DNA of 64,000 nt from Escherichia coli (GTDB lineage Bacteria > Pseudomonadota > Gammaproteobacteria > Enterobacterales > Enterobacteriaceae): the NCBI RefSeq assembly GCF_003334355.1, contig NZ_QOWP01000008.1. One strand, written 5' to 3'. The notes beneath the pieces were generated by a model. That model was not told the DNA's origin. It saw only the letters and a list, made by a program, of their open reading frames with translations, and did no database searches. Positions 16,106-20,503 of this stretch are shown one piece after another; positions within the stretch are counted from its first letter, which is position 1, and every line of letters starts with the position of its first letter. Position numbers and translations under genes: made by a program.

Positions 16106-17995
16106 ATGTTTTATCCGGATCCTTTTGACGTCATCATCATTGGCGGGGGTCATGCAGGCACCGAGGCCGCGATGGCCGCGGCGCGTATGGGTCAACAGAC
16201 TCTGCTTTTGACACACAATATCGACACTCTGGGGCAGATGAGCTGCAACCCGGCGATCGGCGGTATTGGGAAGGGACATCTGGTAAAAGAAGTGGATGCA
16301 CTCGGCGGTCTGATGGCGAAAGCGATCGATCAAGCGGGTATCCAGTTTAGGATACTAAACGCAAGCAAAGGACCGGCGGTTCGCGCTACCCGAGCTCAGG
16401 CGGATCGTGTGCTCTACCGTCAGGCGGTACGTACGGCGCTGGAGAACCAACCGAACCTGATGATCTTCCAGCAGGCGGTTGAAGATCTTATTGTCGAAAA
16501 CGATCGCGTGGTCGGTGCTGTTACCCAAATGGGACTGAAGTTCCGTGCCAAAGCCGTCGTGCTCACCGTTGGGACATTCCTCGACGGTAAAATTCATATC
16601 GGTCTGGATAATTACAGCGGTGGCCGTGCTGGTGATCCGCCGTCCATTCCGCTTTCTCGCCGTTTGCGTGAACTGCCGCTGCGCGTTGGTCGTCTGAAAA
16701 CCGGGACACCACCGCGTATTGATGCTCGAACTATCGACTTTAGTGTGCTGGCGCAACAGCATGGCGATAACCCAATGCCGGTATTCTCGTTTATGGGCAA
16801 TGCGTCCCAGCATCCCCAGCAGGTGCCGTGTTATATCACTCATACCAACGAGAAAACCCATGATGTGATCCGCAGTAACCTCGATCGTAGCCCAATGTAT
16901 GCAGGGGTGATCGAAGGTGTCGGCCCACGCTACTGCCCGTCGATCGAAGACAAAGTCATGCGCTTCGCCGACAGAAATCAGCATCAGATCTTCCTTGAAC
17001 CGGAAGGACTGACCTCTAACGAAATTTATCCGAACGGTATCTCCACCAGCCTGCCGTTCGATGTGCAGATGCAAATCGTCCGCTCTATGCAGGGGATGGA
17101 AAACGCGAAGATCGTGCGTCCGGGTTATGCCATTGAGTATGACTTCTTCGATCCTCGCGACCTGAAACCGACGCTGGAGAGCAAGTTTATCCAGGGGCTG
17201 TTCTTTGCTGGTCAGATTAACGGCACTACCGGTTACGAAGAAGCCGCTGCGCAAGGTTTACTGGCCGGTCTTAACGCTGCCCGTCTGTCTGCTGACAAAG
17301 AAGGTTGGGCTCCGGCGCGTTCTCAGGCGTATCTCGGCGTACTGGTTGATGACCTGTGCACTTTAGGAACCAAAGAACCGTATCGTATGTTTACCTCGCG
17401 CGCAGAATATCGTCTGATGCTGCGCGAAGATAATGCGGATCTGCGTTTGACTGAAATCGGTCGTGAACTGGGCCTGGTGGATGACGAACGTTGGGCGCGC
17501 TTTAACGAGAAACTTGAGAATATCGAGCGTGAGCGTCAGCGTCTGAAATCGACCTGGGTAACCCCGTCGGCGGAAGCTGCAGCCGAAGTGAATGCTCACC
17601 TGACTGCGCCGCTTTCCCGTGAAGCCAGTGGTGAAGATCTGCTGCGTCGTCCGGAAATGACTTATGAAAAATTAACCACGCTGACGCCGTTTGCCCCTGC
17701 GTTGACAGACGAACAGGCGGCGGAACAGGTTGAGATTCAGGTTAAATACGAAGGTTATATCGCGCGCCAGCAAGATGAGATCGAAAAGCAGCTGCGTAAC
17801 GAGAACACCCTGCTACCCGCGACACTGGATTACCGCCAGGTATCCGGTCTTTCTAACGAAGTGATCGCCAAACTTAACGATCACAAACCGGCCTCTATCG
17901 GCCAGGCTTCACGTATTTCTGGCGTCACGCCTGCGGCCATCTCCATTCTGCTGGTGTGGCTGAAAAAACAGGGTATGCTGCGTCGTAGCGCATAA
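16106..17995 (+). CDS. mnmG: tRNA uridine 5-carboxymethylaminomethyl modification enzyme MnmG (GidA)
   Basis: 629 aa; N-terminal FAD-binding GXGXXG (IIGGGHAG); recognised as GidA/MnmG. Confidence 0.95.
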
Positions 17996-18058
17996 CACAT
18001 TAAAAATGCCTGGTAAGCACCCGCTTACCAGGCAACGCATCAAGAACAGGTAATCACC

Positions 18059-18682
18059 GTGCTCAACAAACTCTCCTTACTGCTGAAAGACGCAGGTATT
18101 TCGCTTACCGATCACCAGAAAAACCAGCTTATTGCCTACGTGAATATGCTGCATAAATGGAACAAAGCGTACAACCTGACTTCGGTCCGCGATCCTAATG
18201 AGATGCTGGTACGCCATATTCTCGATAGCATTGTGGTGGCACCGTATCTGCAAGGTGAACGGTTTATCGATGTCGGCACCGGACCAGGACTGCCAGGCAT
18301 TCCACTCTCTATCGTGCGTCCTGAAGCCCATTTCACTCTGTTGGATAGTCTTGGTAAACGCGTGCGTTTCCTTCGTCAGGTGCAACATGAGCTTAAACTG
18401 GAGAATATTGAACCAGTACAGAGCAGGGTAGAAGAGTTTCCTTCAGAGCCGCCATTTGATGGCGTAATTAGCCGCGCTTTTGCCTCTCTGAACGATATGG
18501 TGAGCTGGTGCCACCATCTTCCTGGTGAGCAAGGCCGTTTCTACGCGCTGAAAGGGCAAATGCCGGAAGATGAAATCGCTTTGTTGCCCGAAGAATATCA
18601 GGTCGAATCAGTGGTTAAACTTCAGGTTCCAGCCCTGGATGGCGAACGTCATCTGGTGGTGATTAAAGCAAATAAAATTTAA
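18059..18682 (+). CDS. rsmG: 16S rRNA m7G527 methyltransferase RsmG (GidB)
   Basis: 207 aa, GTG start; SAM-binding motif ([11 protein letters not shown]); recognised as GidB/RsmG. Confidence 0.9.
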
Positions 18683-19298
18683 TTTTTATCAAAAAAATCA
18701 TAAAAAATTGACCAGTTAGACTGTTAACAACAACCAGGTTTTCTACTGATATAACTGGTTACATTTAACGCCACGTTCACTCTTTTGCATCAACAAGATA
18801 ACGTGGCTTTTTTTGGTAAGCAGAAAATAAGTCATTAGTGAAAATATCAGTCTGCTAAAAATCGGCGCTAAGAACCATCATTGGCTGTTAAAACATTATT
18901 AAAAATGTCAATGGGTGGTTTTTGTTGTGTAAATGTCATTTATTAAAACAGTATCTGTTTTTAGACTGAAATATCATAAACTTGCAAAGGCATCATTTGC
19001 CAAGTAAATAAATATGCTGTGCGCGAACATGCGCAATATGTGATCTGAAGCACGCTTTATCACCAGTGTTTACGCGTTATTTACAGTTTTTCATGATCGA
19101 ACAGGGTTAGCAGAAAAGTCGCAATTGTATGCACTGGAAAAATATTTAAACATTTATTCACCTTTTGGCTACTTATTGTTTGAAATCACGGGGGCGCACC
19201 GTATAATTTGACCGCTTTTTGATGCTTGACTCTAAGCCTTAAAGAAAGTTTTATACGACACGCGGCATACCTCGAAGGGAGCAGGAGTGAAAAACGTG

Positions 19299-20503
<1,205 letters not shown>

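Follow-up and report, generated by a model that had tools for sequence, protein, structure and literature searches.

What occupies the long gap between rsmG and atpI in Escherichia coli? We address this question for a stretch of 64,000 nucleotides (contig NZ_QOWP01000008.1, hereafter the window), in which the gap covers positions 18683–19298, 616 bp, and for which the original prediction, made from the letters of the sequence, had suggested an unannotated small RNA (sRNA) or small protein as a possible occupant. The ordinary answer is that no hidden gene was detected in the gap, which is close to certain to be the cis-regulatory region of the ATP synthase operon atpIBEFHAGDC. Beyond this, we consider it fairly probable that the gap forms a phase-locked, multi-protein upstream control region of atp: it is built of conserved blocks set apart by fixed-length spacers of variable sequence, and such mosaic conservation with invariant spacing is the signature of a DNA-level protein-binding platform.

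The window represents the origin-proximal region of the E. coli chromosome, on the strand opposite to K-12 numbering, with the gene order mioC, oriC, mnmG (16106–17995), rsmG (18059–18682), the gap, atpI (19299–19679), and atpB. The gap begins directly after the rsmG stop codon TAA (18680–18682) and lies about 3 kb from oriC. Published coordinates were converted as window position = 19298 − (K-12 NC_000913.3 position − 3922441), with U00096.2 coordinates being 1977 lower than those of NC_000913.3 in this region, an offset checked on the ArcA box coordinates described below. The claim that this is one of the largest non-coding gaps, AT-rich, and devoid of open reading frames (ORFs) of 60 amino acids (aa) or more was borne out: at a threshold of 90 aa, the gap ranks second among the ORF-free stretches of the window, its GC content is 0.31–0.40 vs. 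about 0.50–0.55 in the flanking genes, and the longest ORF wholly within it is 30 aa. Of 5426 complete E. coli genomes, all but one (5425) contained the gap, which measured exactly 616 bp in each full-length match inspected, and no annotated feature falls within it in those genomes or between atpI and rsmG in the K-12 MG1655 RefSeq record. E. coli UMNF18 (NZ_AGTD01000001.1) was the sole listed genome in which the gap matched in two pieces; the break falls after query position 324, and an insertion or an assembly break may be the cause.

To compare the gap across species, we scanned for RsmG in one genome per species, which gave 80 loci, 66 of them extending to atpI. The alignment comprised 62 Enterobacteriaceae sequences, and a subset of 36 non-redundant species was used for column statistics and motif scans. 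Gap length was 612–621 bp in 61 Enterobacteriaceae species, including members of Escherichia, Citrobacter, Kluyvera, Enterobacter, Klebsiella, Raoultella, Kosakonia, Pluralibacter, Cedecea, Siccibacter, Atlantibacter, and other genera, the exception being locus L080 with 597 bp; in Erwinia, Pantoea, and Winslowiella, it was 711–825 bp. Positions 19137–19298 were almost invariant in the 62-sequence alignment, while upstream of 19137 islands with a mean conservation of 0.7–0.9 and many invariant or near-invariant columns alternated with near-random stretches. In the 36-species subset, 40% of the upstream columns were at least 80% conserved. Identity to E. coli was 0.44 at rsmG four-fold degenerate sites, which are saturated, 0.58 in the upstream gap, and 0.92 in the promoter part. 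Conserved upstream columns were 77% A+T vs. 55% in variable ones, and the AT-richness of the gap is therefore largely owed to conserved motifs. Erwiniaceae keep the islands, and their extra length lies mostly beside rsmG, with one additional insertion of ~11 bp. Given that this extra DNA is on the rsmG side, the module belongs with atp.

The reference point of this module is the atp operon promoter on the plus strand at 19180–19207, with a −35 element TTGAAA (19180–19185), a 16-bp spacer, and a −10 element TATAAT (19202–19207). Its hexamers agree with the consensus at 11 of 12 positions, which identifies it as a sigma70 promoter on sequence, and it was invariant in the 62 species, in agreement with the promoter and the TATAAT at ~19202 that had been proposed. 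It was the only sigma70-like match on either strand of 18500–19500 and the only positionally conserved sigma70-like promoter on either strand of the gap. A published sigma70 peak from chromatin immunoprecipitation with sequencing (ChIP-seq), assigned to atpI, lies at U00096.2 ~3920520, or window ~19242. The motif distances below are counted from the transcription start mapped in the 1980s, which we take to be at ~19214, 73 nt before GTG 19287.

Spacing within the gap was more constrained than most of its sequence. Six successive distances between anchors, from ATCA at 18973 to the ribosome-binding site, were 66, 12, 30, 66, 55, and 82 bp and were identical in 62 of 62 species, and 18973–19284, 311 bp, was free of any indel although much of the intervening sequence is variable; the upstream half had 1–2 bp of slack, at two places only. 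The distance from the CRP site (19036–19057) to the −10 element was 163 bp in all 62 Enterobacteriaceae, E. coli, Klebsiella, and Cedecea among them, and 162–164 bp in Erwiniaceae (163 in Erwinia and Pantoea, with 162 in one). For more distant relatives, a word-indexed homologue search with AtpI returned close relatives only, and a search of representatives went deeper. In four of the five site-bearing distant metagenomic relatives, the distance was 163, 163, 164, and 162 bp, even though AtpI and AtpB of these relatives are only 42–60% and 79–85% identical to those of E. coli. Some contigs of distant relatives were weak material, being too short, apparently error-ridden (L084), or, in the case of one endosymbiont with 11% GC, uninformative. 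A single change of length was seen between families: the distance between the near-invariant motif ATGTCAAT (from 18905) and the CRP site was 134 bp in Enterobacteriaceae vs. 145–146 bp in Erwiniaceae and locus L082. This difference of 11–12 bp between families is about one helical turn, as predicted by selection on helical phase. To our knowledge, there is no published explanation for near-constant motif spacing in this gap across enteric bacteria.

Could the gap instead be an ordinary promoter and terminator separated by neutral AT-rich filler, or a horizontally acquired promoter island silenced by H-NS? It is AT-rich, H-NS binds its distal part, and ~18584–19023 is among 78 listed promoter islands (Panyukov and Ozoline 2013). 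However, gap length stays within 1% despite the saturation of rsmG four-fold sites and a two-fold variation in the neighboring mnmG–rsmG spacer (17996–18058 in the window), which measured 53–118 bp in all but three of 76 loci (from L002–L081), the exceptions being two small gene overlaps and one spacer of 335 bp. The region is moreover ancestral to Enterobacteriaceae and Erwiniaceae rather than a recent acquisition. Promoter islands accompany mostly genes of horizontal origin and are recognized by a high density of predicted start points, whereas the atp gap is ancient, conserved as a mosaic, and without an excess of consensus sites, with one promoter-like site vs. 1.9 expected in a simple consensus scan, as distinct from the PlatProm scoring behind the published list. 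Neutral filler or foreign DNA is thus contradicted by the comparative data, and we regard this explanation as extremely unlikely.

Which proteins, then, occupy the conserved blocks? Published binding data match two of the islands, while at least six other conserved motifs are without a known binder. The first matched island is the CRP site taTGTGAtctgaaGCACGctt (19036–19057; core 19039–19054), centered at 19046.5, that is, at −167.5. As TGTGAtctgaaGCACG, it matches 8 of 10 core positions of TGTGA-N6-TCACA and was present in 36 of 36 species. CRP Footprint-seq places CRP at K-12 position 3922697 on the identical sequence, assigned to atpI. The site was also recovered by genomic systematic evolution of ligands by exponential enrichment (SELEX), and a crp mutation lowered the activity of an atpI-lacZ fusion that included ~500 bp of upstream DNA. 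The second is an ArcA box at 18886–18902, centered near −320, composed of the direct repeats TGTTAA (18886) and TATTAA (18897), 11 bp apart, with the motif at the same column in 33 of 36 species. Both ChIP-seq and its microarray counterpart, ChIP-chip, gave peaks for ArcA that were assigned to atpI, and the position weight matrix box ctgttaaaacattattaa at U00096.2 3920857–3920877 corresponds to window 18885–18905 (Park 2013). Repeats and published occupancy together identify this element as an ArcA box, and regulation of atp by ArcA is putative. Conserved candidate sites for ArcA and Fnr upstream of atp had already been mentioned, as an unpublished observation, in 2007. We dropped TGTCAA as a third ArcA repeat, given that it follows the second repeat by 9 bp rather than 11 bp.

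Fis and H-NS also have published binding here. At the distal edge, an FNR-like motif, TTAATTTTTATCAA, with a conserved block, TTTTTATCAAAAAA, spans 18679–18692, agrees with the consensus at 9 of 10 positions, and overlaps the rsmG stop codon. It is listed under atpI at U00096.2 3921070 as TTGATAAAAATTAA, where it has no FNR peak and overlaps a Fis ChIP-seq region (Myers 2013, Table S6). We required both TTGAT-N4-ATCAA and FNR occupancy to call an FNR site, and we do not call one at 18679–18692, where the ChIP-seq peak is missing. The published FNR ChIP-seq peak of the locus is inside atpI (~19537), upstream of atpB and outside the gap. At the other end, the invariant A+T block GAAAAATATTTAAAC, followed by TTATTCACC, occupies 19137–19162; it is centered at −70, too far upstream for a standard UP element, and its G-N13-C pattern with an AT core would fit a Fis-type site. 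Fis-like patterns, consensus leads only, occur both here and next to the CRP site. For ArgR, a weak ChIP-chip signal has been reported that was not confirmed by ChIP-exo, the exonuclease variant of the method.

The remaining islands follow from the rsmG side. TGTTAA(A/C)A(A), TGTTAAAA, at 18722–18730 was at least 80% conserved and stood 42 bp from the next anchor in 59 of 62 sequences. A row of TTTAAC, T.AC, TTwTC, and TAAC in steps of ~11 bp extends over 18764–18802, lying beneath the rsmG terminator in E. coli; the distance from TTTAAC to TAAC was 35 bp in 62 of 62 sequences, the row persists in Erwiniaceae, and read on the minus strand it looks like ArcA-type direct repeats in 20 of 36 species. 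The column block (A)ATAGTCAAC, in its E. coli form AATAAGTCAT, is conserved at 18826–18835, and ATAGTCAAC sits 78–80 bp ahead of ATGTCAAT in Enterobacteriaceae, Erwiniaceae, and L082. The most conserved distal island is GAAAATATCAG-N3-GCTAAAAAT at 18838–18862, with a mean conservation of 0.91, a 14-bp internal spacing shared by all 62 species, and GAAAATAT retained in Erwiniaceae; it agrees with the IHF core WATCAR-N4-TTR at 8 of 9 positions, yet its invariant bases deviate from that consensus. ATGTCAAT, followed by GGTTTT, occupies 18905–18922; it is near-invariant, being present in 60 of 62 species, and is retained in Erwiniaceae and L082, and its distance to GGTTTT was 12 bp in all 62. Weaker islands, T.TTTT.rAAA.AsT and TTwAwTwTCA..ArGATG, were delimited by column conservation at 18938–18985, where E. 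coli has the IHF-like sequence TATCATAAACTTG (18972–18984), a consensus lead only that was common to 16 of 36 species. Between the CRP site and the invariant block, TTT.CssG..rTTTGCA.TTTT, AAAAsT, and rAAAA (19069–19126) are conserved within Enterobacteriaceae and not in Erwiniaceae, which do preserve the length of this stretch. At 19079–19095, just after the CRP site, most Enterobacteriaceae read ATTTGCAGTTTTGCATG, with two TTGCA repeats, while E. coli reads TTTACAGTTTTTCATG, in which both TTGCA (TTTGCA) repeats are degenerate. We take these repeats beside the CRP site to resemble CytR half-sites. A search for internal repeats of the gap gave only short two-copy matches.

We propose that the two parts of the gap work together as follows. 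The last ~160 bp comprise the strong sigma70 promoter, the invariant A+T block at −70, and the leader, and the ~450 bp upstream contain a row of short AT-rich protein-binding motifs at fixed distances from one another and from the promoter. On these, CRP, ArcA, Fis, H-NS, and other proteins could assemble as one stereospecific complex on bent, looped, or wrapped DNA, which would require each protein to sit on a given face of the helix. Such a complex may tune atp transcription to carbon source through CRP, to redox state through ArcA, and to growth phase through Fis and H-NS. In E. coli, one, perhaps two, hairpin terminators overlie the platform and would halt rsmG read-through. From the evolutionary pattern, we give about even chances to the distal 450 bp acting on the atp promoter as a single phase-locked multi-protein complex. 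The conservation pattern, the constant spacing, and the published binding of CRP, ArcA, Fis, H-NS, and sigma70 are established; joint action of the sites, their action on the atp promoter, and a looping or wrapping geometry are inferred. A stronger version, which we hold tentatively and believe somewhat less than we doubt it, is that the whole spacer is an enhanceosome-like nucleoprotein machine of ~580 bp in helical register with the promoter, including still unknown sequence-specific proteins, that predates the split between Enterobacteriaceae and Erwiniaceae and tolerates only a whole-turn change of ~11 bp.

Several observations weigh against such a phase-locked complex, chiefly the want of functional tests on the distal sites and the regular use of the gap for insertions. 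A CRP site at −167.5 lies well outside the range of classical activation, matching none of the class I and class II positions (−41.5, −61.5, −71.5, −82.5, and −92.5), even if its center, 106 bp upstream of −61.5, roughly shares the helical face of that position. Among the distant relatives, L088 has a distance of 171 bp between its CRP site and the −10 element, and others have no site. We found no compensation between the two places with 1-bp indels and no clear peak of 10.5-bp AA/TT (A-tract) periodicity as a sign of curvature. Apart from the crp effect on the ~500-bp fusion, no effect on atp transcription has been shown experimentally for sites upstream of about −100. A 2023 table drawn from curated databases gives no regulator for atp, and work cited by Ravcheev 2007 reportedly found atp expression to be independent of Fnr and ArcA, with which later arrays disagreed. 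Finally, the gap has served as a neutral landing site for large cassettes, with no harm reported.

If the sites nevertheless cooperate on the atp promoter, this would be among the longest spacing-locked promoter-upstream regions known in bacteria, and the supposedly simply regulated atp operon, a much-studied one that has no transcription factor in the curated-database table, would have a large uncharted control system. It would offer an accessible model of long-range, phase-dependent control of a bacterial promoter and would hint at regulators of energy metabolism that are still unknown. The gap, widely used as a landing pad for large insertions, may not be neutral for atp regulation.

Known systems provide partial parallels. 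Like rrnB P1, with its Fis sites at −71, −102, and −143 and its UP element, atp combines a strong sigma70 promoter with an A+T-rich, Fis-like block at −70 and Fis further upstream. In contrast, the constrained region of atp is about four times longer, reaching −530, and includes CRP and ArcA sites; its A+T block is not a canonical UP element, and its Fis site at −70 is predicted. A further parallel is with multi-factor promoters whose distal activators work through bends or loops in the DNA (narG, nir, acs P2, and malK-malE): CRP binds at a distance and on a constant face of the helix, and several nucleoid proteins and global regulators crowd into a few hundred bp. However, CRP at −167.5 is further out than in the examples known to us, and bending and looping at atp are putative.

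The likeness to the replication origin raises another explanation, in which the platform would serve the chromosome rather than atp, through origin-proximal nucleoid organization, insulation of oriC-region transcription, or binding of replication or segregation factors. oriC is classically described in the same terms, as conserved blocks set apart by spacers that vary in sequence but not in length, and the oriC of Enterobacteriaceae likewise has short invariant blocks, variable spacers, hardly any indels, and proteins of the Fis and H-NS type. Given that the oriC-bearing spacer measured 369–383 bp in Enterobacteriaceae loci, compared with 612–621 bp for the gap, the length of the rsmG–atpI gap is constrained at least as tightly as the replication origin. 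The gap is 3 kb from oriC, has Fis and H-NS occupancy, and contains one DnaA-like box, TTATTCACC, matching 7 of 8 positions and conserved in 32 of 36 species. In other gamma-proteobacteria, its position is held by parAB. On the other hand, good DnaA boxes do not cluster in the gap, which also has neither a 13-mer unwinding element nor any evidence of a replication function, and insertions in it are tolerated. Spacing is tightest beside the atp promoter and locked relative to it, the extra DNA of Erwiniaceae is on the rsmG side, so that the module travels with atp, and the only specific binders identified, CRP and ArcA, are both metabolic regulators. We therefore consider a chromosomal role unlikely.

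What of the hidden gene itself? An unannotated sRNA, an antisense RNA, or a very small protein might own part of the conservation, and a few signals point in this direction. Short extracellular RNA fragments have 5′ ends at 18811/18812 on the plus strand, a weak minus-strand 3′ end listed in the Term-seq tables examined shows some antisense transcript crossing rsmG, and a weak promoter-like pair with a −10 element GAAAAT at 18840 occurs in 20 of 36 species, not including E. coli. However, the 5′ ends of the fragments fall within the terminator U-tract of rsmG, which fits decay products of read-through. A scan of the gap against Rfam at E ≤ 10 returned nothing save two chance eukaryotic matches, and RNAalifold, run in sliding 100-nt windows on both strands of the 36-species alignment, gave an energy of 0 almost everywhere upstream of 19100. 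A six-frame search found no frame with a conserved start and stop and no conserved peptide beyond the DNA motifs; stop-free runs were short, without conserved starts, and coincident with those motifs. Consequently, neither a small-protein gene, as judged by a conserved start, stop, frame, and coding-like substitution, nor an sRNA gene, as judged by a promoter with a terminator, conserved structure, or a known family, was recognized in the gap. Term-seq, one of the checks proposed with the original prediction, gave no 3′ end within K-12 3922500–3923099 in the tables examined; these may be incomplete, and rsmG is weakly expressed. Covariance analysis, another such check, gave no consensus structure upstream of 19100 on either strand in the 36 species. 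With no annotation and no conserved promoter of its own either, a hidden gene is very unlikely, and the suggestions of an sRNA or a small protein were not supported. The accompanying remark that the sequence gives no positive signal missed the mosaic conservation with invariant spacing at the DNA level.

Hairpins do occur in the gap in the E. coli lineage. The intrinsic terminator of mnmG-rsmG, proposed at ~18775–18812, is real and slightly shifted, with a plus-strand stem-loop at 18770–18807 followed by U7 at 18808–18814. It starts 88 nt past the rsmG stop codon and folds at −14.3 kcal/mol (z −4.46, with 0 of 200 shuffles as stable), and stem-loop and U-tract together identify it as an intrinsic terminator on sequence. 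A simple terminator scan overlooked it because of its long loop. Among 24 species tested, only Escherichia and C. sedlakii had a hairpin with a U-run at this position, and other genera had one placed elsewhere or none; the rsmG terminator is specific to the E. coli lineage. A second plus-strand hairpin followed by U5 (18872–18926; −13.6 kcal/mol, z −2.41), found in E. coli and the Citrobacter lineage, holds the ArcA box in its loop and may be a back-up terminator. We at first suspected covariation in this hairpin, a candidate that was rejected because only 44% of cells in its outer helix were paired in the 36 species, no more than in slid controls, and the hairpin is not preserved in other genera.

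At the promoter end, the atpI 5′ leader (19214–19298, plus strand) was ~93% conserved, contains the ribosome-binding site GGAG (19284–19287), and had no significant structure over its length (fold z-score +0.52). Two starts have been used for atpI, ATG 19299 in the K-12 annotation and the older GTG 19287. The latter, which begins the 130-aa ORF in our ORF list, is specific to E. coli, with most other genera reading GTA, and what is conserved is a start at GTG 19296 or ATG 19299, which agrees with the K-12 annotation of 126 aa. The Term-seq tables examined include a very strong plus-strand RNA 3′ end at K-12 3922387 (window ~19352), 53 nt inside atpI. This end implies that an abundant RNA of ~139 nt extends from the atp promoter into early atpI; the atp leader may be terminated prematurely or processed. 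Four-fold degenerate sites of atpI (19299–19676) were ~0.70 identical to E. coli across genera, compared with 0.44 in rsmG, which suggests that atpI coding DNA may be under extra constraint, such as internal promoters or messenger RNA features.

Upstream of rsmG, the mnmG–rsmG spacer contains a perfect 12-bp hairpin at 18007–18034 (−22.4 kcal/mol, z −7.5) that has no U-run on the plus strand. The weak minus-strand 3′ end found by Term-seq (~18001) falls just past it, so that the hairpin seems to act as terminator for a transcript running antisense to rsmG.

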